A DNA stretch of 62,511 nt, counting the filler, from Jimgerdemannia flammicorona (lineage: Eukaryota): assembly GCA_003990765.1 (NCBI GenBank). It is 2 parts of 2 records of this genome, joined end to end, with 100 filler letters (N's around TTAATTAATTAA, not from the genome) between each part and the next. Parts side by side here need not be neighbours in the genome. Positions count along the whole stretch, not along the records: positions 1 to 31,215 come from RBNJ01000408.1; 1 more part is not named here. One strand, 5' to 3'. Shown here piece by piece: positions 3,611 to 33,191 of this stretch. The position numbers were made by a program, and so were the translations under genes. Position 1 is the stretch's first letter; each line of letters opens with the position of its first letter. The notes under the pieces were generated by a model. It ran no database searches and was not told the DNA's origin. It saw nothing but the letters and a program-made list of their open reading frames with translations.

Positions 3611-3613
3611 ACT

Positions 3614-3628
3614 TGGTAGCAGTGGTTT
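3614..3628 (+). promoter_or_regulatory. Primer-binding site, tRNA-iMet-like
   Basis: TGGTAGCAG lies 3 nt after the LTR end and is complementary to the ...CUGCUACCA 3' end typical of eukaryotic initiator Met tRNA. Confidence 0.65.
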
Positions 3629-4822
3629 ACAATCCAATTCTGCTTCAAGATGCTTCCTCATCCTGCTACAAACCCTTCTGAGAATTCCTACAAGTTGGTA
3701 TAAAGCCCAACCTCTGAACTGGAATTTATCCTGAACTATCTAACAATCTGGAGAGAATTGAACCTGATGTATAAGGACAATTTGACCTCCACACCTACAA
3801 CAAGTGGGACAAACTTCATTCAAAGAAAGAAGTACTTAGGTTAAACCAGCAAATAGGCGAAACCCTATTCACCGAACTCCTTGCACTACACCCAGCAAGT
3901 CAAGATGAAGAAGGTCTTATTAAAGCCTTCTTTACTCTTCTCAATAAGAGTTTTGTCAGCTCTACAAATCTGAGTGACCTAGGACAATCAGCAGCAGTCT
4001 TTCTAGCCTTAGTTCCTCATGAAGCCCAAGTCTCTGTAGCCAAGTGGCTCAACTCTACTGATTTTTACTGTATCAGGACCAAGACCACATTATACTATCG
4101 ATTCCAGAACAGCAAGACCTGCCATATTCTTAAAGAAGAAGCAAGAGAAACCCTTCATCAACTACCTGACCCCAAACCTGAAGCAGACCCTGCTACAGCC
4201 CTATCTGAATCTGAAACCCAAACCGAACCTGAACTTGACTTTGAATTAAGTCCATCTGAAATCAGATATATGTACAACTGATTCCATCTACTTTGATGCT
4301 GAGCAAACCCAATTACACAGAGACCAAACCGAAGAGGAGGAGGAGTATCTCACTGAATTCGATCTCGGATATACCACCAAAGGAGACACACTCCCATCAG
4401 GACAGAATACACCTACACAACAACAAACAGCTATCTATCAAGCCCTTACTCCAGATCCACAACTACTACTTCAGCAACTTACCCAGACCCAAAGAACCCC
4501 ATCACACTCTGCACCAGTACCTCAAGTAGTACCAGTAACACCACTATCAGTAGTCCAATCACCTCCAGTAAACAACATGGTGAACCAACAGATTCTAGAC
4601 CTCACAGCCCAGGTAGCCATAATGGCAGCAACCATTACTACCTTGGCTGAACAGACCTGACCTACCAAAAATCTGAGCCTACCTACCTTCAATAATACTG
4701 CACAAGAAGTTCAAAGCTTCATTAGTGTAGTTGACACTAACTTCGAAGCCAACCAATGGACCAATGAGTGAGTTGCTGACCGCATTCTGACAAACAATCA
4801 AGACCACACTCTGGAACAACTC

Positions 4823-6853
4823 TATAAGCGCACAACCTCTAAGCCACCGAAATTATATGTAACCTCTGAACAAACCTGGAAATCACCTGCTTGATCACGA
4901 AGCTGAGTCAAACTAAAGTCACAGCGCACAAAGCTGAGTCAATATGAAGTCATAGAACACAAGAATTACACAAACAGAATCTTACCAATCAGGACTAAAT
5001 GCATATATACCGAGCACCAAGATGTGTCGAATCAGAGAACCAAAACAAATAACAACCACAACTTCCAAAACACACAAATATGACCACTGAGATCTACAAC
5101 CACATCTGTGCTGATATTTGGAATGCCATTGTCAACTGAGCCACACCCCCTCTGCCCCTCATGAATATCTATAGTCTGGCACCCCTCTACTTCATGGAAG
5201 CCCGATGGAACGCCCTGAACATACTTAGTGAGGCCCACCGAATCAGACAAATCTCAAGCTACTATCAGATTGGCTGCCTCCTGAAAGATATGATTGAACA
5301 CCACCATGATACAGACATTACCCAGATGTCTCAATATCAGAAGCTCATCACCCGCAAACATCGAGAACTTTTCTATGAGTACAGTACTATTATTCCCTGC
5401 CTCCGAGTTACTACCAGCAAAATGGTTGCTACCCTGTCCTATGGCCAAATTGATGACATGATACAAGAACTCAATCACAAGTACCTCAAGTATGTCAAAA
5501 CCACAGACAGAACCTTCCCACACCCCAATGATTAAATCCTGCAAATGCCCCAAGTTGGATATGCCATGAAGGACATCTACGATATAATCCACTTCGATGA
5601 AGATGAAGCAGAAGACAATGATCCCTCTGATGCCAACATGACCTCTAGCCAAGGATCTCTGCCAACCCTGATCACTCTGCCAACCTTGCCAATAAACTTA
5701 CAACAGTTCATAACAGCATACAAGACTTATTGGGACAATGACCACTAGTACGAATACTAATCCGCATTCACCCCCGACTACTTCAACTATAATGAAGAGA
5801 CCAGAGAACACAACCTGTACCTCCAGACAACCCTCGAGATTGAACCAACCACTCCACCACCTGAGTACGAGCGACATGAACCACAGCCACCAGCTTATTA
5901 CAATCCTGCAACTCATAGTGCTGTAACCTATAGAAGGTACACAGACAGTGAATCCAATAAAAGCAAAAACAATACACCCCTCCTTCGCCCACCAACACCT
6001 TATCCAGCATACGAGACAGACGATACTATCCTGTGGGATGGAGATGAAGTTCCAATGTATTATTACCTCAGCGAACAAGGAGAAGTAATCCGCAAACCAT
6101 TATTCCTAGATGACTACTTCATCAGAGATGATGCAATTGATGGTGATGTTATTGAAGACTACCCAGACAGTGCCTAAACCCATAAATAGCCTAGCAGTCA
6201 TAGTATAGTTAGATTAGCCTTGTACAACGTGACTGTGAACTGACTCAGCAGTCAGACGATCTCTTGATGTGTCAGATCACACTTATACTACGTAACTGCA
6301 TTCTGACTCAGCAAAGCACTTAGTACTACATCCATATCTAGCATAGTCCAGATAGCCCCTCACTAGTATAAATACCCCCTCCCCCAGACCTCAGAATCTC
6401 AGACTCGAACACACAAGAATATTCCTGAATACTTCCCCACAATACCCCTTTACACAAATACTCCTAGTATAGCAATATCATGAATAGCAAATAAACCTAT
6501 TCCATAACCCACAAACCACTTTTAAGTAAATCTGCTCTCTGTTAGGTCCTACTCCTAACCCTATCACAAAATTTCCTAATTGGGTATTGTCTGCAGCGAT
6601 ATGCCAATTCAACTAAGCTGGTCTTAGTTTCTTGAACTTCCTGAAATATGGAAAATCCTGAACATCCAGAACTAGTCTGGGAAAGGACTTTGGTTGAGAC
6701 ATTAGCCCAATCTTGAAATCAATAAGCATAGAAGACGTACTCCATATGAAAGTGATCTTGACCATAAGAAAACGGTCTTCCAGAACATCCAGAATATCCA
6801 GAAAACCTTTCCAGAACTACGTAATGGTCACTCTAAAAAGTAACCCTCTTACA
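4823..6853 (+). repeat. Solo LTR of family A inserted in element A gag
   Basis: Full LTR copy flanked by a perfect 5-bp TSD AACTC (4818-4822 and 6854-6858). Gag reads through once it is removed. Confidence 0.95.
5080..6177 (+). pseudogene. LTR-encoded ORF of family A (copy 2, in the solo LTR)
   Basis: 1098 nt from ATG to TAA. Track ORFs 5161-5535 and 5545-5748 are in-frame pieces of it. Confidence 0.75.
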
Positions 6854-7677
6854 AACTCTTTGCTACAACTACAGTCTATGTCCGCCGAGTTGTTATATTC
6901 TTCCAAGGACCTGCTGAAGAATGGTGGTGAACCCTTCCTGAAAAATCCCTCATATGAGATACCTGATCTGCAGTAGTTGCTCAGAATGCAGCAAACAATG
7001 CCCCAGGATATGGAGCCCATCCTGCAGCCCCTGGACTCAAACAACTCATGATTGCTCAATACTGTAGTGAAATGATGATTACTGAATCTTGAGTAAAACT
7101 CTGCAACCTCAAATTTGATGTACATGGCAAAGAAGAATTTGAAACCTTCTGTATAAAACTCGAGTCACTTCTGAACACTGTTGGCCTAGGATATATCACC
7201 AATGATGAAGCACAAAATAGTACAAGAGCAGACCATTTATTTGATGCCCTGCCTGAATGGCTTACTAGAAAAATCCGAGAACAAGGCTGCCCAGTTGGTT
7301 ATGATCACCAACAATGGTGCCTGGAAAGAATCAAGACTATGGTCAAGTGAATCCTAATAGCTGGATCAATTCTGCCCCGAAGACAATTCAATAACAAGGA
7401 AAAGACTTGGACCAAGAAAGAAGAACCCAAGCATGAAGCATCCTGAGCTCCCTTCACATCCACCTCTTGGACACCTAGAAATCATGAACCCACCCAACCA
7501 AGTATCTTTAAGAAACTTACTGAAGGCGAAAGGAATGAACTTCAAAGAAGTGGAGCATGCTTCTATTGCTGAAAGACAGATCATATGGCCAGTGCCTGCT
7601 CTAACCGAAAACCCCGAACAGCAATAAGAGCAACTGTTACCACTCTACACCACCTCAACAACCTGACCACCAGAACA

Positions 7678-8085
7678 CTAGACTTTGTCAAGTTAAGACA
7701 AACTGCTAAGGCCCCAACCAAAGGAAGTCAGAAAGCAGCTGGATATGACCTATATGCAGCTGAAGAAGTTACAGTTTCCAACCGAGAAGTCAAACAAGTC
7801 TACACAGGAATCAGCATCCAAATCCTTGAAGGACATATTGGAAGAATATGCTGTTACAGCAGCCTAGCATTGAAAGAACTCTCAGTAGAAGGAGGAGTCA
7901 TTGACGAGGATTACATAGGTGAAATTATTGTCCTCATCTGAAACCATAGTTGGACACTCTTCAAGATCTCTATTGGGTTCTGCATCACCCAGATCCTATT
8001 CAAAAAAGTCGAGTCAACTCTGACAGTCAAGGAAGTCCCTGAACTATTGCCTACCATCAGAGGATCCAAAGGATTTGGCTCATCA
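7678..8085 (+). pseudogene. dut: Element A dUTPase domain (between the nucleocapsid and the protease)
   Basis: Motifs AAGYDL, (R)SSLA, GGVIDEDYIGEI, ITQI and RGSKGFGSS, in the gag-pol frame. Confidence 0.9.
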
Positions 8086-8319
8086 AACAAGGCTCCAGCC
8101 CAACCTACCATGAACAAAGAAGAATAATTCTACAAGAAAATCAAAGATGGATATGTACCAAGTGGCTGATGTCCCCATGGCATTGGAATGTACTCTTCCT
8201 GAATAATTGATGATTGCTTCTCTTATATCAATGAACTGGCTTAAAGAAGAACCAACAGAAGGAAGGCTCCTACAACTGAAATCACCACCATTGGATCAGA
8301 CAAACTGCTCACCCTTAAG

Positions 8320-11300
8320 GCTTTTGTCAATGGAGCACCTATCAAGATTATGATAGACAGTAGTGCTTCAGGCAACTTCATCAATGAAGAAACAGCCAAC
8401 AGACTCAAGGTTTTCACCTCCCCAGTACAGCAAACTTAAGCAGTTGCTACAGCTGATGGAACCTCACATGTTATTAGCAAGGAAGTCCACAATCTACCTT
8501 TCCGAATTGGTGACTACTGAGTACATGTTATCCTCCAGATCGTACCACTCTCTGACAACGAAATCATCCTTGGAACTCCATGGTTAAAACAAGAGAACCC
8601 CATGATCAATTGGGTAAACCATTCTCTGACCATCAAGAAAGGACACCACAACTTCAAACTGCAAGGCAAAAAGGACCCACTCAACTCTAGTGACTCTGAA
8701 CCAAAGATCACCCACATCAATAAGTTATAACTCAAGAAATTGACCAAGAAATGCCCTCTCTTCACCATCTCCATCTGTCCATCCAAAGGAGAACCTGAGA
8801 ACTCTGAAGAAGATTTTTCCAAAGTTGACAGCCATGTCAGACCACTACTCCAGAAATTTCGAGACATATTCCCAAAGAAACTCCCGAAAGGCCTACCTCC
8901 TAAATAAGTAGTAGACCATGCTATCAAGACTATCCCAGATGCCAAACCAGCCTTTAAGTCAATCTACCACATGTCTCCGAGAGAAATTGATATACTCAAG
9001 AAAGAAATTGATGAACTCCTAGAGTAAGAATTCATCAGACCCAGTGTATCACCCTATGGTGCACCAGTCCTCTTTGTTGTTAAAAAAGAAGGAGACCTGC
9101 AAATGTGCATTGACTATTGCGATCTTAATGAACAGACCATCAAGAACTATTGCCCACTACCAAGGATCGATGAAATATTCGATAGACTTACCAACCTGCA
9201 ATTCATGAGCTCCTTTGATCTGTAAAATGGTTACTGGCAAATTGCTATGAAAGAAGAAGACATCTATAAGACAGCTTTCCGAACTTGCTATAGACACTTT
9301 AAGTTCCTGGTTATGTCCTTTGGCTTAACTAATGCTCCAGCAACCTTCTAGATACTGATGAATACCATTTTGCATCCATACCTAGACAAATTCATTGTTG
9401 TCTACATTGATGATATCCTAGTCTTCAGCAAAACCCTAGAAGAACATCTTGAACACCTTGAACTAGTCCTACTGAAACTCTAAGAAAACCAACTCTTTGC
9501 AAAACTCAGCAAGTGTGAATTTCTCCTGAAAGAAATTCAATTCCTTAGACACATTGTCTTTCCAAATAGAATCAAAGTAGACCCCAGCAAAATCTCTGCA
9601 ATCAAAGATTGGCCCAGACCCAAGAAGCTGAAAGACCTCCAGTTATTCCTGGAATTAGCAAACTATTATAGGCGATTTGTTGCCAACTTTGCTAAAATCA
9701 CTACCACTCTCACCCAAATGACCAAGCACAGCAAGAAACAAGAACAACCCTGGACCATGAAATAAGAGAAAGACTTCAACAATCTTGTAACTTGGGGGCC
9801 CAAGCAAGATACTGCCTTTCAAGTACTGAAAGATACCCTGATAACCACTCCAGTACTTCAAGCGATAAATCCTGCCTTACTATATGAAGTCACTATTGAT
9901 ACCTCTGATCTAGCCCTTGGAGCAGTACTCATGCAAGAAGGACACCCTGTGGCCTATCACTCCCGCAAGTTCAATGATGTCGAAATCAACTACGCAACTC
10001 ATGAGAAGGAGATGCTAGCCATCATGGACACTCTGATCAAATGGTGACCTTATCTAGAAAGAGCACACTTCACTATATTAACTGACCACAAGTCATTGGT
10101 CAACATCAAGACACAGGCTACCCTTTCTCGAAAGCAAGCCAGATAGATGAAAGTCCTCACCAACTTTGACTACAAAATCCAGTACCGTCCTGGTAAGGAA
10201 AGTATTATTGCTGATACAATCTCCAGACCACCAATCGAAGAGGTTATCCAAACTCTCACCTTGGTTACAAACTCCATCATGGAACAAATTATCACAACAT
10301 GTGCCGATGATAAGGAAGCTTAAGCACTGTGAGAAATCCTGAATAGTGACGATATAGACAAGTATATATAGTATCATCAATACCAACTGAAGGACAATGC
10401 TATCTACTACAAGGATAGACTATATGTCCCAAACAACCGAGACCTCCAAAGGACTATCCTATTCGAATATCATGATGCCCCTATAGCTGGACATTTAGGA
10501 TTTGATAAATGTTATAAAGTTATCTCCCAAAACTTCTATTGGCTCTGCATGGCAGATCAGCTCAAAACCTACATCACTTTCTGTGATGTCTACCAATGAA
10601 ATAAGTCCTCAATACTAGCAAAACCTAGCTTACTTCACCCTATCCCAGTACCATCTGCTAATTGGGAACAAATCTCTATAGACTTCATTATACAACTACC
10701 CTGAACCAAGAATGGAAAAGATGCAATTGTTGTCTTTATGGACTATCTCAGCAAACAAGCTTACTTCATACCTACTATTACTACTGCAATAGCACCAGAC
10801 ATAGCCACACTCTTGTTTAATAACATCTTCCACTATCATGGTCTTCCCAAGATCATTGTTAGTGACTGAGACCCAAAATTCATCAGCCATTTTTGGAAAG
10901 CCCTCCATACACACCTTGGAACAAAACTTGCACTATCCACAGCCTTCCACCCTGAAACTGATGGCCAAACCAAAAGAATGAACCAAACTCTGGAACAAAT
11001 GCTAAGGAACTATATTTCCTATAGATAAGATGACTGGCATGAACACCTCACTGCAGTTGAGTTTGCCTATAACAATAGCAAGCAAGCCTCTCTCGGAATG
11101 ACTCCATTCTTCGCCAATACTGGACAAAATCTAAACACCCCTTTGACACTTATTCAAACCACTGAAGAACCCTCTACAGTCGAAGCTGTTGAAGAATTCT
11201 TACTCTGAATATACAACCTAAGCCAGATTGCTATTGAGAATTTATCATGAGCTCAAGAATAACAGTCACAGTATGTTAACCAACACTGCTGAGAAGAAAC

Positions 11301-11743
11301 TTTTGATATTGGAGAAAAAGTTCTACTGGACATCAGAGAATACCAAGTTGACAACCTCAAGTACAGACCATCTATAAAGCTGAATAGTAAGTTCATTGGA
11401 CCATTTGAAATCATCGCACAAGTCTCTCCAACCTCCTACAAATTGGTGCTACCAGACACCATTAAGATTCACCCAGTCTTTAATGTTCAATATCTCAAGC
11501 GATACAATGAGAATAATGACGAGCTATTTCCAAACCAAACCACCAAACCACCTGCACCTGTCATTATTAATGACCAAGAAGAGTACAAAGTTGAACAAAT
11601 TCTCAACAAACATGGCAACAAGAACTACCCTGAGTACCTTGTCAAATGGAAAGGTTACCCAATCCATGATGCAACCTAGGAACCCAAGACCAATCTCCAG
11701 AATGCTACCAATCTAGTTCAGGAATATGATTCCTTGAATAACT
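8320..11743 (+). pseudogene. pol: Element A pol: protease, RT, RNase H, integrase, chromodomain
   Basis: IDSSASGNFI (degenerate DSG) at ~8353; PLPRIDE; YIDD at 9403; RNase H (KEMLAI, TDHKSL); integrase HHCC and GQT(E)R; GPF at 11398; chromodomain EYKVEQIL...YLVKWKGYP at ~11580-11730. Confidence 0.93.
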
Positions 11744-11938
11744 AGAACTAAATACTCTACACCTATCAGTACACACTATATATTATCCTCCCGAACATTA
11801 TAATTATTGCAAACCAAAAACTCAGCAAAACAAGACAAGAATACTGATCCTCTGGAGAAATGGCAAAACCGAAAGCAAGCCTATTCTCCCTGTACCACTG
11901 AACAAAATTAGAAGGCCCCGACGAGGACGTCAAAAGCT

Positions 11939-11951
11939 AAGAAGGGGAGAG
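11939..11951 (+). promoter_or_regulatory. Polypurine tract of element A
   Basis: AAGAAGGGGAGAG immediately upstream of the 3' LTR TGT. Confidence 0.85.
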
Positions 11952-11952
11952 T

Positions 11953-13986
11953 TGTAAGTGCACAACCTCCAAACCACTGAAATTACATGTCACCCTCTGA
12001 ACAAATCTGGAAATCACCTGCTTGATCATGAAGCTAAGTCAAACCGAAGTTACAGCGCACAAAGCTGAGTCAATACGAAGTCACAGAACACAAGATTTAC
12101 ATAAATGGAATCTTACCAATCAGAACTAAATGCATATATACCTAGCACTGAGATGTGCCAAAACAGAGAACCAAAACAAACAATAACTACAAACTTCCAA
12201 ACATACAAACATGACCACCAAGATCTATATCTGTATCTGCGCTGACATTTGGAATGCCATTGTCAATCAAGCCACACCCCCTCTGCCCCTCATAAATATC
12301 CATAGCCTGGCACCCCTCTACTTCATGGAAGCCCGATAGAATACTCTGAACATGCTTAGTGAGGCCCACTGGATCAGACAAATCTCAAGCTACTACCAGA
12401 TCGGCTGTCTCCTGGAAGACATGGTTGAATACCACCACGATACAGACATTACCCAGATGTCTCAACACCAGAAGCTCATCACCTGCAAACATTGAGAACT
12501 CTTCTATGAGTACAGTACCATTATTCCTCATCTCCAAGTTACTACCAGCGAAATGGTTGCTACCCTGTCCTATGGCCAAATCGACAACATGATACAAGAA
12601 CTCAATCACAAGTACCTCGAGTACATCAAAACCACAGACAGAATCTTCCCACACCCCAATGATCATATCCTGCAAATGCCCCAAGTTAGATATGCCATGA
12701 AGGACATCTACGATATAATCCACTTCAATGAAGACGAAGCAGAAGACAATGATCCCTCTGATGCCGATATGACCTCTAGCCAAGAATCTCTGCCAACCCT
12801 GATCATACCGCCAACCTTGCCAATGAACTTATAACAATTTATAACAGCATACAAGACTTATTAGGACAATGACCACTGGTATGAATATCAACCCATGTTC
12901 ACTCCCAATTACTTCAACTATAATGAAGAGACTGGAGAACACAACCTATACCTCCAGATAACCCTCGAGATTGAACCAACCACTCCACCACCTGAGTATG
13001 AGCAACTTGAACCACAGCTGCCAGCTTACTACAATTCTGCAACTCATAGTGCTGTAACCTATAGAAGGTACACAGACAGTGAATCTAATGAAAGTAAAGA
13101 CAACACACCCATCCTTCATCCACCAACACCTTATCTAGCCTATGAGACAGACAATGCTATCCTGTGGAATAGAGACAAAGTCTCAATGTATTACTACCTC
13201 AGCAAACAAGGAGAAGTAATCTGTGAACCACTCTTCCTAGATGACTACTTCATCAGAGATGATGCAATCGATGGTGATGTCATCGAGGACTACCCAGACA
13301 GTGCCTAAACCATAAATAGCCTAAGCAGTCATAGTATAGTTAGATTAGCTTTGTACGACATGACTGTGAACTGACTCAGCAGTCAGATGATCTCTTGACA
13401 TGTCAGATCACACTTATACTATGTGACTGTATTCCGACTCAGCAAGGTACTTAGTGCTACATCCATATCTAGCATAGTTCAGATAGCCCCTCACTAGTAT
13501 AAATACCCCCTCCCCCAGACCTCAGAATCTCAGACTCAAATACACAAGAACATTCCTGAATACTTTCCTACAATATCTCTTTACACAATTACTCCTAGTA
13601 TAGCAATATCATGAATAGCGAATAAATCTATTCAAATAACCCACAAACCACCCTTAAGTAAATCCACTTCCTGTTAGGTCCTACTCTTAACTCTATCACG
13701 AAATTTCCTAATTGGGTATTGTCTGCAGCAATACACCAATTCAACTAAGCTAGTCTTAGTTTCTCGAACTTCCTGAAATACAGAAAATCCTGAACATCTA
13801 GAACTAGTCCAAAAGAGGACTTAGGATTGAGACATTAACCTGATCTTGAAATCAATAAGCGTAGAGAATGTACTCTATATGAAATTGATCTTGACTATAA
13901 GAAAACAGTCTTCCAGAATATCCAGAACTTCCAGAAAACCCTTCCAGAACTATGTAACGGTTACCCTAAAAAGCAACCCTCTTACA
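11953..13986 (+). repeat. Element A 3' LTR (2034 bp)
   Basis: TGTAAG...CTTACA, colinear with the 5' LTR. Confidence 0.95.
12211..13308 (+). pseudogene. LTR-encoded ORF of family A (copy 3; 365 codons)
   Basis: ATGACCACC at 12211. Track ORFs 12553-12834 and 12895-13308 are in the same frame, and the stops read as sense codons in sister copies. Confidence 0.78.
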
Positions 13987-14500
13987 AAAGTATATGTAGT
14001 AGTAAATTGAACTTATATGTCTTCTTTTATTCTTATGAGTTTGAAGTATTAGTTCAATTGAAAGATCTATATATCTATAGTTAGATCTTCTTAGTGACTA
14101 TCAAAGATATTTGACTTGAATAGCTTGAAGCTAACTAGTATAGCAATAGAATATAATATAGTTGTAATTTTTGTTTTCTGATATTCTAGTTATGTTTGAA
14201 GTTATCAGATCTGGTGAGCCATAGTAGTAATTATATTTTTCAGATTGATTTATAGTTCAGCACCATTTACTTCTTCTATAGCAGAGGGGTCTAGATGATA
14301 GGCTGGTTCTTTATAATTCATTTTGGACTTATATAACTAGTTGTAACTAGTTTTTAAATTTATATAAGATTTCTTAATAAGGTAAGATATAATAATATTA
14401 CTGCTACTAAGTATAATAGTTTTAGTAGACCTAAAGTAGCTCAAAGAGATACTTATAGATTTAAGTATTCTTAAAGGAATTCTGGAAGAAAATATTCTAA
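13987..14500 (-). mobile_element. Decayed gag-like relic of an older LTR element (probably continuing at ~1200-1577)
   Basis: The reverse strand reads I*IFQLN*YFKLIRIKEDI*VQFTTTY, resembling gag 'WIFQ..YF' helices. Extreme TA enrichment. Confidence 0.35.
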
Positions 14501-14513
14501 GCTTTATTTAAGC

Positions 14514-14527
14514 AAAGAATAAGAAAC

Positions 14528-14573
<46 letters not shown>

Positions 14574-14582
14574 AAGAATAAG
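14514..14582 (+). mobile_element. Ultra-truncated LINE insertion (ACTAT + A41) with TSD
   Basis: AAAGAATAAG is duplicated at 14514-14523 and 14573-14582 around AAACTAT(A)41. The tail matches the GACTAT(A)n ends of the LINEs. Confidence 0.65.
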
Positions 14583-15417
14583 GATATTTATACAGAATCT
14601 GAAAGAAAGATCTGGAAGAATCTTAGAAAAGAAGAGAAAAGCTAAGAAATAAGTTCTTGATAAAGATGATTAATAATATTCTATAATGTTTCAAAAGATT
14701 TTATAATTAGCTAAGATAAGATACTTGGCACCAAGAAAAGACAAGAAGGTTTTAGTAATGTCTTGGTGCCAAGAGAAGATTTCTAGGCATTCAGAAGATG
14801 CTAAAATATAGTAAAATGTTTAGAAAAAGATAAGAAAAAACTAGCAAAAAGACATGAAAAGTACTGAGACTAAAATATGACTGTAAAATTATTATATAAG
14901 TAATTCAGTTCAGTTTAATATTATTAAAAATATTCTAAGTTATTAAGATTAATAGTTATTAATAGCTAATTTTAAAATTATAAATATATATTTTATAAAT
15001 CTAATATCTTATAATCAATATAAATATATTATATTAATATATTAATATTATAAAATAAATTTTTGATACATACATATATTTATTTTTAAACCAAATAAAT
15101 TTAAATATATCTGAATACCAATATATCAGATCTAAAATTACTATGTTCCATCTATCTTAGCATGGCTTCTGGCAGATCACGAGACATGGTCTCGGGATTG
15201 ATGGCTGGGCGCGTGAGCATACCTTGATAACAGAAGATTGCAATCTAATTTTCTCGTGCTATTTTATATTTATTTATTGATTAATATGGTTTCATGATAG
15301 CTTTGCATCGGGATGTCTCGTTGACACAGAACTTAAGGCACGGCAGGCTGGTTCGCCATGCTATCATGCTATCGGAATTTCCCATATTTAATTTTGCGAT
15401 CGTTGTTACCTGTAAAT

Positions 15418-16995
15418 CTATTTCTCTTTTTGATCATTTCCTTTTCCAATATCAATCCTTCCAAGTCGTACCTCCAACTCCTCAACCATCTCACCGACCA
15501 CCGATCCCTTTTTCACCGCTGCATCCATCCACATTTTCAGAGGTTTTTTTTTTAAATGCGGAATCTGAGTCAGGTTACTCCACGCCCACTCCAGAAACAT
15601 GACGTCTCCAGCCAACGCAGCGCGCTCAAGCACTCTTTTGCTCAAAATTAATATGCGTTTGCCCCGCTCCCTCAAAAACGCATCAAGCAACCGAATAACC
15701 TTGACAGTGCTCTTGACCTCCACGCAGCGGCGGAGCTTGTAGTAATTGTAGTATCGCACGATCTCCGGCCGCACGTGAAACACGTCGATCTCCTCAACGA
15801 CGTCAGGATATCTGTCGATGCACGTTCGCAACACGTCCACGTCGTTGCTCCTAATCGCGACATACACGATTGGCAGGATGGGTTGATACTCGGGAAGCAC
15901 CCGCGCCACGTAGTCCAGCACGCCGGTGTCACGGTCGCGAATCGCCTCGTGGAAGGCGTTCAACAGATTTTGCTGGCTCGACGGGCATATCAAAAGCCTA
16001 TCATTTAGTACTGCTCTGGCAGCTTGGTCGTCGCCATCAGTCACGCCATGCATGCTCCTCGTTGGGTCGCCATGCGTCTCGTACACGCTTACCATACCCC
16101 ACCACCCTATCCTAGGCAACCATCGCTCCCGGCACTCGGCGCACATGTCCTCTGGGAACATGCGGAGTGTGTGCATGGGGTGAACCCACAAGGGCCTATC
16201 GGTCGGCCAGACTTCCCACCCATCGAAGGTAACCCTCTTGGTATAGATGACGTCGAGCACCTCGTGTCCCCATGTCGTGAAGCGCACGCCGCGATCGTGC
16301 AGGTATCTCAGCGCATCATACCAATTGCAATTGAGCGCGAGCCACAGAATGTAGTCGGGTTGGTCTTCCATCTCGTTGAAGCGCTCGTGCTCATACACGT
16401 ACTCGACGAGTTCAAGCCGCCGGCAATAAGAATAGCACAGCATGTTCCAGTCGAGGAACGCTGGCCGCGTCTGCCGCGCCAATTTGGATCGCTGCAGCCA
16501 CTCGAGAATATCGAATCGGGCCTCGCGTGTCGCCCAAAGGCGGATCATATTGAAGCACGCCTTATGATGTACGTAGCGGGTGTCGGTGGAGCTTGCGACG
16601 TCGAAGAGCGTGTGCAGATACATGTAGGTGTGGAGGTTGTGCTGCTCTACATTGGCGAACATGCATCCGCCATTGGCCGTGATTTCAGGAAAAATGACAG
16701 GAAACATGACATCGGGATGGCCGTAGCCGGAGGGTAGGAGGTGACGGAGGAGGGGGAGGTCGCCCGACTGGAGCGCGTGCTGCAGAGGGGTCAGTTCGGC
16801 GGGATAACAGTTGGTTATTTTCTCGATGACTACTTCCTCGAGCGGTGGAATCTTGACGGCAAAGTCGAAGAGCCCGGCGGCCGAGGCATGTTCGCGGCTG
16901 GTGAAGGAGAAGATGTGTTCTACTATCTCCACAGGACAGGTGGAGAGGAGTTGAACGATAATGTCGATTGGTTTCGTGAAAGTTAGAGGACTCAT
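15418..16995 (-). CDS. Intronless F-box-like plus degenerate ankyrin-repeat protein (525 aa)
   Basis: N-terminal LLSTCPVEIVEHIFSF is F-box-like. Ankyrin-like units include TPLQHALQSGDLPLLRHLL, AFHEAIRDRDTGVLDYV and RAALAGDVMFLEWAW. Long open GC-rich frame. Confidence 0.7.
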   Translation of the reverse strand: MSPLTFTKPIDIIVQLLSTCPVEIVEHIFSFTSREHASAAGLFDFAVKIPPLEEVVIEKITNCYPAELTPLQHALQSGDLPLLRHLLPSGYGHPDVMFPVIFPEITANGGCMFANVEQHNLHTYMYLHTLFDVASSTDTRYVHHKACFNMIRLWATREARFDILEWLQRSKLARQTRPAFLDWNMLCYSYCRRLELVEYVYEHERFNEMEDQPDYILWLALNCNWYDALRYLHDRGVRFTTWGHEVLDVIYTKRVTFDGWEVWPTDRPLWVHPMHTLRMFPEDMCAECRERWLPRIGWWGMVSVYETHGDPTRSMHGVTDGDDQAARAVLNDRLLICPSSQQNLLNAFHEAIRDRDTGVLDYVARVLPEYQPILPIVYVAIRSNDVDVLRTCIDRYPDVVEEIDVFHVRPEIVRYYNYYKLRRCVEVKSTVKVIRLLDAFLRERGKRILILSKRVLERAALAGDVMFLEWAWSNLTQIPHLKKKPLKMWMDAAVKKGSVVGEMVEELEVRLGRIDIGKGNDQKEK

Positions 16996-17724
16996 GGTGA
17001 TGTATGGGTAGTGGTAGTTGACATTGTGTTCTTATACAACTAGGGAGGGTCATAATTTGATATTGATAGAACCACAGGGTGAGTTGATGACTAGGTCGAT
17101 CGTCGATCGTCAACAACCACATCATTAAATTCGTTGCCTTTTTATAATCATTTTTTATTTCAGCTCTCATGCGTGTTTAAAACCGACCCTTCGAAGTGTT
17201 TCCAATGCATTTACCATTGGTTTCCACAATTTCGTTTCCTATTTAAGGAACACTCATCGAGTCATCAAAAGTTGATGCGCTGTATAAGAGTAAAGCCCAT
17301 CGAGCATTCCAAAGAGCCATGAACGAACGAGCTCAAATACCTGTAGCGCCGGGCTGCACAGATGTAAGAGATATCTAGACTGCGTGGGAACCTGAGGTGT
17401 GCCGAAGCACGGAAAGCGCAACTAAGAACTTATAAAAAAAACGAATCAAAGCGGAAGAGATGAACACGAGGGACCAGCAGCGGGCGACGCTATCTGGTAA
17501 TCGTTCTCGCTCCACAGGACTATCAAGTCATCAGGCTTTTCATCCCAAAACCGGAACAATCGTTATCTGACAACTGCCCACCTTTCAACACCCTCTCTCC
17601 ATCATCCGCCTAGACGCCAACAAACCGATCACCTGGGCCTTCCAATTCATCCTAGCGATCGACAACGCCAACCTCACGCCTCCTTTCCACCAACACCGCG
17701 CACATAGTAAACTCAACACCACCC

Positions 17725-17800
17725 GCCACAAGCATCAACATGGGCTACAAGCATCAACATGGGCCACAAGTATCAACATGGGCCACAAGCATCAACATGG
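17725..17800. repeat. Minisatellite, 4 x 19 bp (GCCACAAGCATCAACATGG)
   Basis: Four consecutive units with at most 1 mismatch each. Confidence 0.95.
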
Positions 17801-18874
17801 ACCAGCGAGATACAAGAAGAAATGCAAGAAATCCCAGCCTCGTGCACCAAGGATCAGGGCATCCAGAGCAACCGCCGCCACGAAACTTTCTCGAACGCCT
17901 TTCGAGTTCACCTCTCGCGTTCGTCTCCAATCATCCGGTTTGATGAGGGTGATTGCTGAGACAGCACGCCAAACTATGTCCACGCCGTGTGGACAGTGTG
18001 CCGTGTGCTTAAGAAACCTTGGACGTGGAGAGGGTGGTGTCTGTACCATGAGATGCGTTCGTGATAGATGGGAAATCATCCATACGCATGTAATTAATGA
18101 CAAGACTGCTTCTGTTGTATCACGCACGCACGAAGCTCGAAAATGTGAATAAATCCACGTTCAGTTGGGTTTGGCGCGGAAATGGCCAGGTGAAATCGTT
18201 ACCGTGGACCGTGGAAGCCAAGGAGACGGGAATGCGCGAAAGTGTGCACTCTTACTGGCAACCTAGCTAAACGACGCATTTATTTCAATTCTGTTTTATT
18301 AAAATCGGAGGAATCCCATCGGTCCCCTCAGATGTGTCGCTCCGGTCGCTCGGACAATGTAAAAATTTCCAAAACATGTGCATCCCCAAACAGCTATTAA
18401 CTCCATGAGTATTGGATGAGACCTACTTTTGCCGTTAAAGGTGTCACCAAGACGACACAGACATAATTCCATGAATTCTCTTTGCGTCCGCCGACAGCGA
18501 GGCCCTCGCTCTATTCCTCACCAACACCTTCACCACCATCTCGCGCCCTGCTCGTCTCACAACCAACTCCCTATGAGTCATTTATGACGTGCACTTCGTC
18601 GCTTTATACAACGTGATGAAGAAATTGTGCCGGATGAACAGGAGAATAAAAAAAAAGGTTTATAATGTACAAGTTTTACACAACAAAAAAAAGAAAAAAG
18701 AAAAAAAAAAGCAAAGGAATAGTGCAGTATGTTGGACGGACATGAAAACACACGCGAAGGAAACCGCCATGAAAATAAGTGATGACTGTCGAATACAGAT
18801 CCTCAAGACCAGTCGGCCCTCGCTACACCCACCATCACAAGGCCTGCCTTGTAATCCTTCGCACCCCGCCCCTC

Positions 18875-19879
18875 TCATCCCTCCACATACGTCAACCTAA
18901 ATGTCCGCAACTTCCGCATCAAATCCGCCATCTCGTCCTTAATCTCCTGTGCCGTGGCCTCATGCCCCTTCGTTGCCTCCGCTTCCTTCCCCAGAACTTT
19001 CTTCAGCATCCTCACCTCCCTCTCAACCATCTCCGCCAGATCCTTCTGCCTGCCGACCACGACCTCGTTGGCAGCGCGCACCTCCTTCAGTTCATCCCCC
19101 TTCTCTTCCAGCATCTTCCGCACACGGGCCTCGGATTCTGCCGCGACTTTCAGCGTTTCCTCGGACTCGGCAAGGAACATGTGCTGAGCCTCAGCGATCT
19201 CGGCCTTGATGGCATCGACCTCGGCGCGGTACGTCAGATTCAGAGCGTCGATCTCCTTGCGTACAGACTCGTACTCGCGGGCGGTCTTGCGCGCAGCCTC
19301 TTCGGCATCGGCCTGGGCGGCAGCAGCCTCCTCCTCGAGAACCTTGAATCGTTCGAGTCCGACGCGGGCGGCGTCGATCTCCTCCTCAAATTTCTTGAGT
19401 TGGCCCTCGAAGAAGAAGGAGGTGGCCTTGGACTGCTCTATCTGGCGGTCCTTGCGGTGCAGCAAGTCGTTAAGGGTCTGGACCTCGACGCGCAGGCGGC
19501 GGTTGGAGCGCGAGGCTTCGGCGGCAGCGAGCTCTGCAGCTTTAGTCTCGCGCTTGGTGAGGTCGTACTCGGCGCGCGTGGTGGCCAGCTCGCGCTGTGC
19601 GGACTCGAGCTTGCGCTGGATGTCTTCAAGGTCTAGGGTGACGGCTTTAGAGCCGGAGAGGTGCGGTGATGTGGGGGGAAGGAGGGAGGGGATCTTGTTG
19701 GTACGTTCAAGGGAGAGCGGGTCTAGAGGGGGTTCACAAGTAGCAAGGGTTAAATATACGCGGGGAAAATGAAAAGGACTCGCACGGATTTTGTGGGGGG
19801 CGGAGTGGCGTTCGGCGGGAGGTCTCAGGGTTGACATACCATCCAGATTTTGAACTCTGTCGGGGAGAAGGTTCGCCAT
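18875..19879 (-). CDS. Coiled-coil protein, She3-like
   Basis: Heptad-rich 334-aa frame. LNDLLHRKDRQIEQ resembles the She3-family LLxRKERRI motif. A probable in-frame 63-nt intron lies at 19723-19785 (GTGCGA...TAG). Confidence 0.7.
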   Translation of the reverse strand: MANLLPDRVQNLDGMSTLRPPAERHSAPHKIRASPFHFPRVYLTLATCEPPLDPLSLERTNKIPSLLPPTSPHLSGSKAVTLDLEDIQRKLESAQRELATTRAEYDLTKRETKAAELAAAEASRSNRRLRVEVQTLNDLLHRKDRQIEQSKATSFFFEGQLKKFEEEIDAARVGLERFKVLEEEAAAAQADAEEAARKTAREYESVRKEIDALNLTYRAEVDAIKAEIAEAQHMFLAESEETLKVAAESEARVRKMLEEKGDELKEVRAANEVVVGRQKDLAEMVEREVRMLKKVLGKEAEATKGHEATAQEIKDEMADLMRKLRTFRLTYVEG

Positions 19880-20250
19880 TGGAGTTTGGTTCGAAGGAAC
19901 GGATAAATCATTCTCGGGATTCCGTCTCCAAACAATTAGCCTTCAGTCATCATGTGACCAGTGACGTAGACTTTCTCCATCTTCCAGACCTTCCAGACCT
20001 TCCAAACCTCAACTGACGTCTATATATGCGTCAAACCACCTCAGATCCACTATTCAAATCCATTATTCTATTCAAACCAACATGTATGCCAAACCAATCC
20101 ATGCCAAGACGTATCGTGTAGGATCGACAAACAAGCATCTCATCCTCGGAACTGACTCAGCCTGGCAACCGCGCCACCTTCGGCGAAGCCAGCCCGTCCC
20201 TCTTATTCACACGCTTGCTTTTTCTTCCACCCCCTACTTCGCCAACCAAC

Positions 20251-21352
20251 ATGCCCTCGAATTCTTGGAATCCCTGGAGGCCCAGCCAGAAGAGGCTGTA
20301 CGACGAAGAAAAGGACAGCACCAGTACTGAGAGGGTCCCGCTTGGCCCGCATAAGATCTCGCTGCACATTTCCACAGCCCGGCACCCGCGCCCGCGCCAC
20401 ACGAAGCACAAGCAGAGTACCATTGTCAATTCGTTCCACCGCGACGCCTTCTCCACCCGCCTCCCGGCCTACTACGAGGCCCTGCCCGGTGCCGACGGCG
20501 TGATCCGGTTCGGGCACAAGATTGCATTGAAGCAGGTTCGGAGCGGGAGGTTCTTGCACGCCGACAAGGAACACACCGTGAAAGAGAATGGGGAGCTCGC
20601 GGTACGTACACGTGACGCTGGGTTCGGAAATGGCGCATCACAATCATTTCGATAATTCTACCTTCATCCAATTCATTAAAGCAACACAACCTTCACAACT
20701 CCCTCCTATACAGGCATCCATCCACACCTGGAAACCGCGCGAAGTCGACTACTGGATCGTCCTTCCGCAACTCGGCCAAACGCAACAGATGGGCAAGCCC
20801 ATTCGTTTGAACCGCACGATCCGTCTGCAACACATCACGACACGGGCCCATCTACACACACACAGCACCAATTCCGCGTCATCGACAGGATTAGGTGGTC
20901 TCCCCGAGTACGAGATCAGCCTTCTCCCGGATATACGATCGGACAGCAACGACGTGTGGATCGTGGAGGTATTCAACTTTTCGCGCAAACCGACGGCTTC
21001 TGGCGGGGATGCAGACGTGGAAGACATCTCCCCCGCGCTGAACCACGACACGTTGGAGTCCGCGGATTTCTGGCACGTGGATAATGTCGTCGCGTTCCGG
21101 CACAAGGTCACTGGTCACCGCCTCGCCGGCCGCGCGACCCAGCCGCTGGATAAGGAGGCCGGGCTGGCAAAGGTCGTGGCAGCCAAGCGGTGCGAAATAG
21201 AGAGCGCGTGGAGGGTTGTTGTGCCGAAGGAGGATGAGGACGTGATTCAAATGAGTGCGTCTATGGAAGAAGTGAACACGCTCGATAGGTTCACCGTCGA
21301 GCAGGTCGGCGAAATGGAGTCGTCACTAATCAACGTGGAAATGATTAAGTGA
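20251..21352 (+). CDS. MIR-domain (beta-trefoil) protein, 2 exons
   Basis: Exon 1 20251-20601, intron GTACGT...TACAG 20602-20713, exon 2 20714-21352. Three MIR-like repeats: IRFGHKIALKQVRSGRFLH, IRLQHITTRAHLHTH and VVAFRHKVTGHRL. Confidence 0.8.
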
Positions 21353-21953
21353 GGGGGCCGTATTTACCTTTCCTTTCGTTACGCCTTGAAGGATGTTCCC
21401 ATATATTTTTATCATTGCGTCACTTGGCACCTGAAAACGGATGCCAACCATGATACTAACAAACCACTATCATGGTCTAATCCTATTCAAGAACTCTTTA
21501 AAAGATTTCCTTGGCGTGAGACACATAGACTTGGCAAAACTGGTAAACGGGTAGTGTCGTTTTTTACCTAGCTTGTCCGTCGTATAGCATCCATCCACCA
21601 AAAATGTGTCCGCCCTTATCACAGTTCCATATTGTGTCCGCCCATAATATTCGTCAATGTTCCCCAAGTCAAGGCAATACAATAATCATATATACGTATA
21701 GCGAAAAATGGCATCGACGAAGATACTATCCAACTAATTCTGGTTTCGTATAATCCCGAAATTACAAAAACTATTGCTAAATTACATACCCCACAAATTG
21801 CTGGCCGCCTCCAGCACCCTCCGCCGACAAAGCAACCCTGAAACCGAACCTTTTCTATACCATCGTGCCTTACAGCGTCATTTTCCGACACATTCTCCTC
21901 CCAATACCTGACCAGCTCCAAGGTCTTTACAACTCTCCCCAAATGCATCCCGC

Positions 21954-24219
21954 CTACTCCGGATGTTGGGCCCCGGGGACCGGACCGCCGTGGCCCTGGT
22001 TCCACGAGAGATACGAGTGGTCACCGAGTTTCCTACACGAAGTAAAAACGGGGTCAATCGGTGGGCATTAGTCAACATTCTTTTCGAACCTCGGCTCGAC
22101 CGTAACGAACATCGTCCAAAATATTTATCAACGCATTTTTGACACAACCAAATATCCAAGACACGACCCACCATGCCCTCCATACGACCAGCCACCCTCG
22201 CTCACAAACAAACAGACCGCTACACCCCTTTACATACCTTGGCTTGAAGCAGTTCCCAGCGAGGAAGATGACTCCGAGACCGGCGCAAATACATCCCATG
22301 GTGATCCAGGCGAGGCCCATGAAGGAACTGCGGGTACCCAGGAAAGAGGTGCCGCTGATGACGATGGACTTGGTGCCGCCGTAGACAGTAATGGGGTAGT
22401 CTGCGGGAGGGTGGGGGGCGGAAGGTGTGGGATTAGGTTGGTTCTGAGCGAGAGCAACATGGTACGGAGTGAACAAAGATTATCCTCTACCAGAAAATGA
22501 AAAATAAAAATGCCAATGCGCAAACCATACTTCCTACCCTTACCTTCTCTAAAAGAAAGAAAGAAAAGAAAAGAAAAAAATCAAATCCAAATACTCACTC
22601 ATATCGATCTCGATACGATAGCTCCCCGCTTCCATGGGCGTCTGCGTATTTTTCCCCCACAGTTTCCTGAAGGTGGGGTACCACGATGTGCGCATCCAGA
22701 CCTGAAAGTGTTCGTCGAGGCTGAGATCAGGTGGGGGATACTCTACGGTATAAGTTCCGTTAGGATATCGGAGAGCCCAGGTCGCAGGTGGCAGGGCCTC
22801 GTCGGGCTTGTAGGCCGGCGGTTTGTAGCGGGTCTTATCATCGGGCCAGGCGATGCCAACAGAGGAGAAGTTGTAAGTGATGTTACCGGCTGACGTGCCG
22901 GAGGGGTTGAGAAGAACGAGATTGCCGATGGTGTCTGTGATGAAGAGGCGGGGGATTGTTCAATATTAACTACGTTCGTTTTGTATGTAAATTCCGGGTA
23001 GGACATCCGCATTTTGCTGGTGCCTTTGACTGTTAAAAGGAACCTTCGAGGTAATCTTAAAAGAAATGGAGAAGCACTTGTTCTCATCTGCAACCACAGT
23101 ATATCGCCTTCCCCATCCGCCCGTCTGCCCAACGCTTCACCACATCACAAAGACCATTCCCTCACTTCCTGTTTTCTGTGCAAAAAGGAGCCCAAAAATA
23201 AAATAAACCCATCTCTCATCTACTCACCATTGAACATCGAAGCAGCAATCAATCCGCACGGATAATACGGGGTTTTGGTCGCCTCAACCCCAGCCGCCTT
23301 GGCGCAGTCGAGGGCGATATCATCGTAGGTGGAACCCTTGCCTGCAAGCTGGGCCTGGTCGTATGATTTGACGTACTTGCGGTGGTTCTGGTAGAAGTTG
23401 GTGAGGCGGTAGTAGAGGAAGATCGGAGTGTTGAGGGGAACGGGGATCGAGAACTCAATGACACACCGCGTCACTGTTATGTTGTTAGGGTTCGGGAGAT
23501 TGTCGAGGAAGCTCGTCGTTTGATACGCTCTGTAACCCGGGATCATAGTTTCTGGAGGAAGGTTTGTAAAGGGTGGTCAGAAAGGGCGTTTAAGGTGCGG
23601 TCTTGGCTCGTCTGGTGTTGAAGACTGGGGATCTCGTTTCCAAAGACCCGTGGGGACACTTACTCGTGATGTTTGCGGACGTGAACTTGTACTCCCAGGA
23701 TCCGGTGGGGACTTGCTCCAGACTGGTGCCATTGAGCTTGTCGGCGCAGTGAGTGTAGTCGATCGTGATCTCGTTGAGCTGTTTTTACGGGGGAAGGAAG
23801 GTCGGGAGGGCCATTTGTGAGAGGGGTGGATGAGTCTCGTTATTGGATGCCAACACCATGAAACAAACGACGCCTTATGCTCAGCACTCAGAGGGAGTAG
23901 TGTTAGTTCTGCTTACCGATTCAGACGCATACAGGAACAGACCTCCCAAGGGTGCGAAGATGATGCCGACGATAAAAAGGGTGGGAAGGACGGTTTTGGG
24001 AGTGAGCAAGGGTTGCCAGTTCTTTAACCGCTGCTGCTTGAAAGCAGTGTCTGGGAATGATCAGAGTTCATTTGGTGTATTTTTTAATTCGTGAATAGAA
24101 CACAGTTAGCAACCGCGTATGTTTGAAAGACAAGTAATACCAAGATGTAGGTTCATAGTTGGAGAAACACAAAAGAAAGTTGACGTACTGGCGGGCCTGC
24201 GATTCCGTAGTTCAGTCAT
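21954..24219 (-). CDS. CDC50: Cdc50/Lem3 family P4-ATPase flippase beta subunit (multi-exon)
   Basis: [84 protein letters not shown]; C-terminal KLGDHSYLSWN. GT-AG introns. Confidence 0.93.
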
Positions 24220-24629
24220 GCCAGTGTTGAGGTGGCCTGACTTTCTGGATGACGAAGGGTCGACGGGGGAGTATTTGGCTGGTATTTTGGCAAGCGCTCA
24301 CTTCGGAGCTGGTGGTCAGTCGGGGGTTCGTTTAAATGCGAAAAGGGTCTCTTGGCCAGTATATACAACTCCGGAGCGATCTAAGCCATCCCCAAATTAT
24401 CTCAACGCCCTAACCTACCTGCTTTCCTGTCCCTTTGTCTGTCAATTCACTTTTATTCACTTTGCGCCAACACACGAGACTCCAAGGATTGGGAAGTTTG
24501 AAATGGGGATTTGAATGGTTCATCGACCATTATCTTTTTTTTATTCGAAGAGCGAGCAAGTCACGTGGCAGACCAAACACAAACATTCCAAGGGGACACT
24601 CCCCGCCAGACTGGCAGACTGGAGCCACT

Positions 24630-31141: not shown

Positions 31142-31215
31142 TGGATGACATGAAAATGGTATGTACGTTGAGAATAACATTTTTTTTTAAAAAAAAAAAA
31201 AAAAAAACTGGCTCG

Positions 31216-31315
31216 NNNNNNNNNNNNNNNNNNNNNNNNNNNNNNNNNNNNNNNNNNNNTTAATTAATTAANNNNNNNNNNNNNNNNNNNNNNNNNNNNN
31301 NNNNNNNNNNNNNNN
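31216..31315. other. Artificial assembly linker N44-TTAATTAATTAA-N44
   Basis: Exactly 100 bp. The central palindrome places stop codons in all six frames. Confidence 0.95.
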
Positions 31316-31612
31316 GGGGTTGGTGACAAGATGGCCCAGTGGGAATGGTTGATGTTGGATATTTTGAATAGCTGGTGGCGGGGTTGGGGGATGGGTGGGG
31401 GGTACTGCAGGGGTCTGGTGCAACGTATTGCCCAGAAGAGTGGTGGGAGGGTTCGGGTAGTGGGTAATTAGGTAGTGCTCAGGCAGGAGGTAGAGGAGGG
31501 GGGGGGTTTGGGCCCCTGGGGCATTGGTTGAGGATAGGGGTGACATTGTATTGTTTACACTATAGACTTCGGTAATAAAGGGCAGTCCAAGAGACTATAA
31601 AAAAAAAAAAAA
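31316..31612 (+). mobile_element. LINE 3' end with poly(A)
   Basis: G-rich sequence ending TAGACTTCGGTAATAAAGGGCAGTCCAAGAGACTAT(A)n, like the other LINE tails. Confidence 0.75.
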
Positions 31613-31893
31613 GGAATATAGGCAAACAGACCTGATTTAGTTTTTTAGCTAATTATATGATATTGATAACTATGCTATACTATATATTCAAATTATCTAG
31701 CTATATTATATTATTTACTTATTATAATATATTATATTCTAATATATAAATATAATATATTAAACTTAGCTTCAGTCTATAGTTTCTCAGAGATTAGATC
31801 ATTATCTCTAAAATACTTATTATTACCAGATTTTTTATTTAGGACTTGAGATATATACTGATTATATATATACTACTATCCTTTATATTAATT

Positions 31894-33177: not shown

Positions 33178-33191
33178 ATATAGTTATCATA

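Follow-up and report, generated by a model that had tools for sequence, protein, structure and literature searches.

The long terminal repeat (LTR) of a Ty3/Gypsy retrotransposon in the fungus Jimgerdemannia flammicorona contains a reading frame of 365 codons that is probably a real gene, either now or in the active element, situated within the U3 (unique 3′) region of the LTR. The frame was analyzed in a stretch of 62,511 nucleotides from assembly GCA_003990765.1, referred to here as the window, in which three LTR copies (A1, A2 and A3) of the element family concerned, family A, are present. The carrier is a dUTPase-containing chromovirus, and its host would belong to the early-diverging, Mucoromycota-like fungi. 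The open reading frame (ORF) behaves as protein-coding sequence under purifying selection, as witnessed by its frame-specific openness, its codon usage, an excess of synonymous changes and the existence of a conserved divergent homologue. From these sequence comparisons, it is very likely that the frame is, or was, a real protein-coding gene.

Evidence for a protein-coding frame

The copy that forms the core of this account is located in A3, at 12211-13308 on the plus strand, and consists of 365 codons followed by TAA, with four internal stops. The copy in A2 (5080-6177, plus strand) is the least decayed one, with four internal stops and no frameshift. The copy in A1 (1836-2932, plus strand) contains five internal stops as well as a 1-bp deletion at alignment column 451, by which the frame is shifted after approximately codon 64. 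This deletion is absent from an earlier, sequence-only reading of the window, which had also taken these three intervals for the LTRs themselves. They are copies of the ORF, the LTRs being located at 1578-3609, 4823-6853 and 11953-13986. Alignment and translation of A1, A2 and A3 confirmed the claim that the copies share their ATG, at LTR offset 258-259, and their terminal TAA. The gene had additionally been assigned to every family A LTR, which is correct for the three copies in the window, and the scope of the statement is limited to those three.

Premature stops are found at 11 codon columns of the alignment, and at all 11 at least one sister copy has a sense codon. Nine of these columns are private to one copy, and two (codons 43 and 227) are stops in two copies. 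In ten of them, one C>T or G>A change turns a CGA, CAA or TGG codon of a sister copy into the stop, and the stop at codon 152 (CAT vs TAA) takes two changes. These counts bear out the earlier description of the stops as falling mostly at differing positions, with CAA/CGA/TGG-type codons in the sister copies. Over the 366 codon columns, the terminal TAA is the only stop that is common to all three copies in the claimed frame. The remaining frames contain 13 and 22 common stops on the plus strand and 3, 24 and 22 on the minus strand, and the openness of the claimed frame therefore greatly exceeds both that of the other frames and what chance would permit. With 0 internal common stops against 3-24 elsewhere, it has no comparably open competitor.

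For the codon usage of the frame, a model was trained on the gag-pol of the element itself, and the log-likelihood was expressed in bits. In A2, the claimed frame obtains +96.9 bits, compared with -70.8 and -29.7 bits out of frame; for A3, these values are +105.7, -78.0 and -8.0 bits, respectively. In A1, the favored frame changes at the deletion, from 0 to 2. The second half of pol, which served as a positive control, reaches +166.9 bits over 849 codons, and the LTR tail outside the ORF scores at or below zero in all frames.

Substitutions between the copies are distributed unevenly over the codon positions of the ORF. Outside CpR contexts (C followed by a purine), 17, 9 and 32 substitutions are found at codon positions 1, 2 and 3 of the ORF (chi-square p = 0.0009), and 15, 16 and 22 outside the ORF, so that the third-position excess expected of a coding sequence is present, and neither of the two refuting outcomes named in the sequence-only reading was obtained. 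A branch test was conducted as well. The LTRs of one element diverge after insertion, and the private changes of A1 and A3 can therefore be used as a neutral control, while the A2 branch includes evolution between active elements. The ratio of synonymous to nonsynonymous changes is 38/32 on the A2 branch and 39/72 on the A1 and A3 branches together (Fisher odds ratio 2.19, p = 0.014), whereas the odds ratio falls to 0.42 and 0.75 when the other two frames are tested in this way. Likewise, changes at codon positions 1, 2 and 3 number 19, 10 and 41 on the A2 branch vs 49, 20 and 42 on A1 and A3 (p = 0.021). Codons 115-365 hold the signal of the branch test (odds ratio 2.68, p = 0.013).

Only few relatives of the family A protein were found. 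A word-indexed search of 5.8 billion proteins returned one match, and a full HMMER profile search of 1,835,955,588 representatives returned two, i.e., P0002 and P0005. P0002 is a protein of 247 amino acids from a 998-bp metagenomic contig that aligns to residues 115-364 and has the same C-terminal end, with 156 of 250 residues identical (62%) and 201 of 250 positive (80%). Its frame is open for 247 codons, and the alignment has only two gaps of 2 residues each, corresponding to whole codons. These properties were compared with neutral-drift simulations started from the A2 copy and run to 62% identity. The simulated sequences remained stop-free in 12 of 2000 cases at a kappa of 2 and in 38 of 2000 at a kappa of 6, the mean being 4-5 stops. 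Their positives averaged 72-73% with a maximum of 78.6%, and none of the 1000 simulations run for each kappa value reached 80%. The replacements in P0002 are more conservative than neutral drift yields. The second match, P0005, is 128 amino acids long, begins at the annotated methionine and is identical to residues 1-128 at 111 of 128 positions. It represents an independent copy in which codons 1-128 are intact, and it is close to the N-terminus of the consensus given in the sequence-only reading. Related loci of the LTR ORF were found neither in metagenome contigs nor in genome contigs, and for family A none was found in viral contigs either.

Copies of the element itself are abundant. In four runs from three studies (soil metagenomes, one organism), between 690 and 6363 short contigs per run were placed on 6856-13988 at an identity of at least 80%, and all 30 bins of this region were covered. 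Twelve of the 35 indel rows obtained are listed, and each of these 12 falls at 12120-12191, just ahead of the ATG, or at 13309-13826, past the stop, so that the listed rows include none in the ORF or in gag-pol. A candidate intron at 12406-12475, suggested in run X6 by a single-contig joint that skips 68 nt and has GT..AG ends, was rejected on two grounds: 68 cannot be divided by 3, and P0005 continues through the region without a break.

The product does not resemble any recognized family, as the sequence-only reading had stated and as the Pfam, PDB profile and HMMER searches agree. Pfam gives nothing at E ≤ 10 for P0002 and P0005, nor for P0001 and P0003, two proteins of a second element family discussed below, and nothing at E ≤ 0.01 for the ORF reads of the window. 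Among PDB sequence profiles, no match was obtained for family A, and the rows returned for the second family all had E > 0.5. In the ESM Atlas, no usable match was found for P0002, and the leads for P0005, which pointed to helical viral proteins, all stayed below the threshold (recognition 2273, 155 shared features at most). A hydrophobic or membrane segment is not present, the maximal Kyte-Doolittle mean over 19 residues being 0.9-1.15. From these results, the product is an orphan protein that is neither Env-like nor Sag-like. Its net charge is -2 over residues 1-170 and -28 over the remainder, and the C-terminal half is composed of 11% Asp, 11% Pro, 10% Tyr and 9% Glu, and is also rich in Thr. 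AlphaFold2 predicts helices at residues 2-18, 30-76, 80-118 and 121-141 and mostly coil beyond, with a mean predicted local distance difference test (pLDDT) score of 32. Of the earlier description of a helical N-terminal half and an acidic, Tyr/Pro-rich C-terminal half, the acidic tail stands, and the helices are predicted at low confidence only.

The carrier element and the place of the probable gene in its LTR

Self-BLAST of the window revealed the family A LTR as a direct repeat of approximately 2035 bp in three copies, which were aligned with MAFFT over 2037 columns. All three are on the plus strand and end in TGTAAG...CTTACA. A1 and A3 are 91.4% identical, A1 and A2 88.1%, and A2 and A3 89.1%. 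A1 (1578-3609) is probably the 5′ LTR of the outer element, and A3 (11953-13986) is the 3′ LTR, immediately preceded by the purine run at 11932-11951 that forms the polypurine tract. A2 (4823-6853) is a solo LTR nested in the gag of the outer element and bounded by a perfect 5-bp target-site duplication, AACTC, at 4818-4822 and 6854-6858. The 5′ internal part of the outer element (3610-4822, plus strand) comprises a spacer, the primer-binding site, a leader and the start of gag, and ends in the first AACTC copy. Pfam finds no match in this part, and its frame-3 translation continues into the gag frame that resumes beyond A2. The sequence resembling a primer-binding site, TGGTAGCAGTGG, is located at 3614-3625, 3′ of A1, and a site of the same type follows the LTR end in other copies of the element in metagenome contigs.

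The internal region (6856-11951, plus strand) is a single frame running from gag to the chromodomain, interrupted by 40 stops. Its domains occur in the order gag (zinc knuckle), dUTPase, protease, reverse transcriptase (RT), RNase H, integrase and chromodomain. In residues of this frame, the Pfam matches are dUTPase at 284-410, protease at 481-597, RVT_1 at 743-897, RT_RNaseH at 1010-1104, Integrase_H2C2 at 1194-1252, rve at 1271-1366 and Chromo at 1577-1625. This domain order, together with the C-terminal chromodomain, the TG..CA repeats, the primer-binding site and the polypurine tract, identifies the carrier as a Ty3/Gypsy chromovirus LTR retrotransposon. As A2 has a perfect target-site duplication and interrupts gag, the simplest architecture would be one chromovirus of approximately 10.4 kb, extending from A1 to A3, with a solo LTR of the same family nested in it. 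The flanks of the outer element, AATCT (1573-1577) and AAAGT (13987-13991), match at 3 of 5 positions and do not form a target-site duplication. The outer element may be a recombinant or may have its true ends elsewhere.

All three family A copies in the window are dead, and they have decayed mainly by C-to-T transitions. Of the two-state singleton differences between the LTR copies, 302 of 326 are transitions. Per site, the decay rate is highest at CpG (0.70), followed by CpA/TpG (approximately 0.30), and far lower at CpT/ApG (0.05-0.09). Raw CpA counts first suggested repeat-induced point mutation of the ascomycete type, a reading that was dropped. Because the CpG rate is the highest and the host is not an ascomycete, the process is described here only as C-to-T transition decay.

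The ORF occupies offsets 259-1356 of the LTR, meaning that it starts approximately 259 nt past the polypurine tract that marks the 5′ edge of the LTR. Its TAA (13306-13308) lies ahead of the presumed TATA box, TATAAATA (13498-13505, plus strand). The distance measured is 190 nt, the value that had been estimated before. The TATA box is part of a block that is almost invariant among the three copies, and its promoter role is putative. Approximately 115 nt further, AATAAA (13621-13626, plus strand) is the presumed polyadenylation signal at the end of R, and it has an equivalent place in all three copies. Since the ORF is situated between the polypurine tract and the TATA box of the LTR, it is assigned to U3. 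With this layout, the genomic RNA would carry the gene as a 3′-terminal accessory ORF downstream of pol. Because the gene sits behind the polypurine tract, it would be copied into both LTRs by reverse transcription, and it would also be retained in solo LTRs. Translation may take place from a subgenomic or spliced 3′ mRNA or, alternatively, transcription may start within the first 250 nt of the LTR. In the alignment, a branch-point-like CTAAA followed by TAG can be seen by eye near a TATATA hexamer at 12135-12140.

The most likely function of the product is that of an element-encoded accessory or regulatory protein. Its N-terminal domain might bind a partner or oligomerize, and the acidic tail could be an activation module or a module for binding host factors. 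More specifically, the protein might activate the LTR promoter in trans or counteract silencing by the host, a suggestion that is tentative, as more weight is spread over other accessory roles.

A second LTR frame and alternative readings

The window contains a second, unrelated Gypsy element, family B, which likewise has an ORF in its LTR. Self-BLAST places its 5′ LTR of 2553 bp at 39256-41808 and its 3′ LTR at 49683-52235, both on the plus strand and 92.2% identical to each other. The ORF in the 5′ LTR (39388-40449, plus strand) contains two TAG stops. The copy in the 3′ LTR (49815-50876, plus strand), P0001, is intact, counts 353 codons and starts 133 nt into the LTR. The less decayed copy has another in-frame ATG 5 codons further upstream. 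The internal region of 7.9 kb (41809-49682) has its pol spread over two frames and its dUTPase between protease and RT, whereas the dUTPase of family A precedes the protease. Over RT and RNase H, the two families are 31% identical (107/343). Scored with the codon model of family A pol, the family B ORF reaches +101 bits in frame. Its homologues P0003 and P0004 are 76% identical to it, and the cluster of P0003 has five further members (six in total). The only match to family B in viral contigs, L001, was taken as chance (34% across a length of 76 residues, with E 7e-4 in a set of 16 candidates). The differences within the family B LTR pair, at 25, 22 and 23 for codon positions 1, 2 and 3, have no bias and are uninformative on selection, because differences within an element arise after insertion and are neutral.

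Between the ORF proteins of families A and B, no similarity was detectable by BLASTP (best E 0.078) or hhalign (probability 2.1%). They have in common their size, their position in the LTR, an N-terminal part that is rich in helices according to low-confidence models, and a strongly acidic tail. The net charge of the N-terminal part and the rest is -11 and -34 in family B, and -2 and -28 in family A.

Several points weigh against a U3 gene in family A. First of all, the ORF is broken in all three copies of the window, and its U3 assignment is based on sequence motifs (TATA, AATAAA and the polypurine tract). Three copies underlie the statistics, and the signals are of moderate strength, with p values of approximately 0.01-0.02 in the branch tests. 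The first 114 codons are less well supported than the remainder, as the branch test is not significant there (odds ratio 1.46) and no divergent homologue covers them. The true start is uncertain, because all three copies have an in-frame ATG 81 nt upstream of the annotated one (region 12130-12210). Between the two, each copy has a TAA where a sister has CAA, and the ancestral ORF may have been 27 codons longer. Furthermore, P0002 owes its place in the database to being open, and this introduces an ascertainment bias. There is, however, no large set of broken relatives hidden behind it, since only two related proteins occur among 1.84 billion representatives. The placement of indels is known for 12 of 35 rows. 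Lastly, the AlphaFold2 models of families A and B were built on alignments of 3 and 4 rows and are unreliable (mean pLDDT 32 and 35), which makes the picture of a helical and disordered protein a weak one.

Among the other explanations, the one that survives best accepts the gene and moves it to R/U5. Transcription would then start no further than ~250 nt into the LTR, for instance after the TATATA at 12135-12140, turning the ORF into a 5′-proximal cistron of the genomic RNA, comparable to the ‘ORF0’ of the plant Retrosat2/Ogre elements but inside the LTR. In every copy, this hexamer precedes the ATG by 71-76 nt, a 5′-proximal ORF could be translated without splicing, and ORF0-type genes upstream of gag are documented for plant Gypsy elements in the excerpts of one paper (PMC3485330). 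However, an R region of approximately 1.4 kb would be needed if the AATAAA at 13621 is used, and the best conserved promoter-like block, consisting of TATAAATA and a C-rich run from 13498 onward, lies downstream of the ORF. Moreover, the LTR edge of family B is only ~130 nt away from the ATG, and the TATA-like hexamer there is not present in both copies. A location in R/U5 is unlikely in view of these points, and U3 is the preferred position of the gene.

Somewhat less probable still is that the frame is passenger cargo, i.e., a captured host gene or foreign fragment that was never used by the element and whose constraint is a remnant of an earlier life. LTR retrotransposons do capture host sequences, and the protein has no similarity to any retroelement protein. 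On the other hand, a cellular homologue was not found, the sole matches among 1.84 billion representatives being P0005, a near-identical copy of the ORF, and P0002, neither of which is named as a cellular gene. The codon usage matches that of the element's gag-pol, and the frame is open and conservatively substituted in a subfamily that is 38% diverged at the protein level. In addition, the distant family B, with its 31% identity over RT and RNase H, has an ORF of like size, position and charge pattern. These observations favor a gene belonging to the element over cargo. The idea that there is no gene, and that the run is open by chance in an A/C-rich, G/T-poor strand (35% A, 15% G), can draw on the 3 common stops of the in-register antisense frame and on the very low confidence of the structure models, but it is already disfavoured and very improbable, as the two other plus frames hold 13 and 22 common stops and the codon usage, third positions, branch test, homologue and conservative replacements indicate this frame only.

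The remainder of the window includes an island of ordinary host genes at 15418-29133, with approximately 52% GC. It encodes an ankyrin-repeat protein (15418-16995, minus strand), a MIR-domain protein (20588-21352), heme O synthase/COX10 (24435-25934) and a zinc-type alcohol dehydrogenase (28069-29133, minus strand). The heme O synthase shares no more than 75-76% identity with the closest relatives, and its best matches with a name come from Lichtheimia, Basidiobolus, Mortierellaceae and Glomeromycota. These matches would place the host among the early-diverging, Mucoromycota-like fungi. Pfam finds nothing in 1-1577, 13989-15400, 30001-39255 (minus strand) and 52236-62511 (minus strand). Two runs of N, of 44 bases each, are located at 31216-31259 and 31272-31315. 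The window also contains an inverted repeat of approximately 337 bp (2-338 vs 37536-37210, 82% identical) and a tandem duplication of approximately 400 bp (53528-54274, 73% identical). The AT-rich stretches around the N runs, the inverted repeat and the tandem duplication have no Pfam match.

Relation to known accessory genes and biological meaning

To our knowledge, the layout of an LTR-borne gene is otherwise known only from mouse mammary tumour virus (MMTV). Its superantigen gene, sag, is a complete ORF of approximately 320-365 codons that lies wholly inside U3, is present in both LTRs and is found at the 3′ end of the genomic RNA. The product is a type II membrane glycoprotein. Other retroviral accessory genes, such as the lentiviral nef and the spumavirus bel/bet and Tas, are 3′-terminal after pol or env and overlap U3 only in part. 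They are made from mapped spliced mRNAs or mRNAs from an internal promoter, and their products have regulatory or host-interaction roles. Tas contains an acidic activation domain.

The closest functional parallel to the family A ORF is sag, as the family A frame, too, is complete and is located past the edge of the LTR marked by the polypurine tract and ahead of the presumed LTR promoter. The family A protein has no sequence similarity to Sag, there being no Pfam match at E ≤ 10. Unlike Sag, it has no hydrophobic segment, and it occurs in a fungal host, in a Ty3/Gypsy retrotransposon without env. The family A protein is not a member of the MMTV Sag family. With the retroviral 3′ accessory genes it shares its 3′-terminal location, and the acidic tail with its net charge of -28 recalls Tas. 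In contrast to nef and bel/bet/Tas, the ORF lies wholly within U3, and no homology to them was found. In literature searches, based on phrase matches in open-access text only, no gene inside the LTR of a fungal or any other retrotransposon was found, and sag was the only LTR-borne ORF returned (PMC9412291, among others).

Additional ORFs have been described for other Gypsy-type elements, as far as the excerpts of the respective papers go. The ORF0 of the rice elements Retrosat2, RIRE3 and RIRE8 is situated in the internal region, upstream of gag-pol, and the LTRs of Retrosat2 exceed 3.2 kb (PMC3485330). Another example is brtn, an additional antisense gene of Boty/BcGypsy1 in Botrytis (PMC8365987). 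Thirdly, CERV of Cer1 in Caenorhabditis elegans and the extra ORFs of bdelloid elements have been reported (PMC10309623, PMC5408684). The family A ORF resembles all of these in being an orphan, fast-evolving and lineage-specific accessory ORF of a Gypsy-type element. It differs from the ORF0 of Retrosat2, as this is excerpted, by its location inside the LTR itself. Gypsy chromoviruses that contain a dUTPase have been described in fungi (Tmt1 in Tuber, and elements in Phanerochaete and Postia), with a variable position of the dUTPase (PMC2864245). Family A has the combination of dUTPase and chromodomain in common with elements of the Tmt1 type, as well as the order gag, protease, RT, RNase H and integrase. 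In its excerpts, the latter account has an ‘add. ORF’ in a figure legend only and nothing on an LTR-internal ORF (PMC2864245). Altogether, the finding is an LTR-retroelement accessory gene that encodes an orphan product and that is embedded in U3, a rare layout, here in a Gypsy element of a fungus.

LTRs are usually treated as non-coding promoter and terminator modules. They are masked by annotation pipelines for transposable elements, and the dating of insertions by LTR pairs assumes that they are neutral. A conserved gene inside an LTR, joined by an unrelated one in another element family of this genome, means that part of the LTR is under protein-level constraint, that solo LTRs can carry complete genes and that fungal Gypsy elements can have accessory genes like those of complex retroviruses. 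The abundance of the element in soil metagenome runs shows that material for a real test exists, and the intact natural copy of the sister family at 49815-50876 can be used for expression studies.

A broader and rather doubtful possibility is that the long-LTR, dUTPase-containing Gypsy elements of early-diverging fungi form a class that keeps a protein gene in U3, so that each LTR, solo LTRs included, would be a cassette of a gene plus a promoter. The helical and acidic proteins would then be element-encoded regulators, such as LTR transactivators or antagonists of host silencing or methylation, that were either retained since the split of families A and B or invented twice. If true, this class would be a retrotransposon counterpart of the accessory genes of complex retroviruses and a source of dispersed orphan genes in such genomes.

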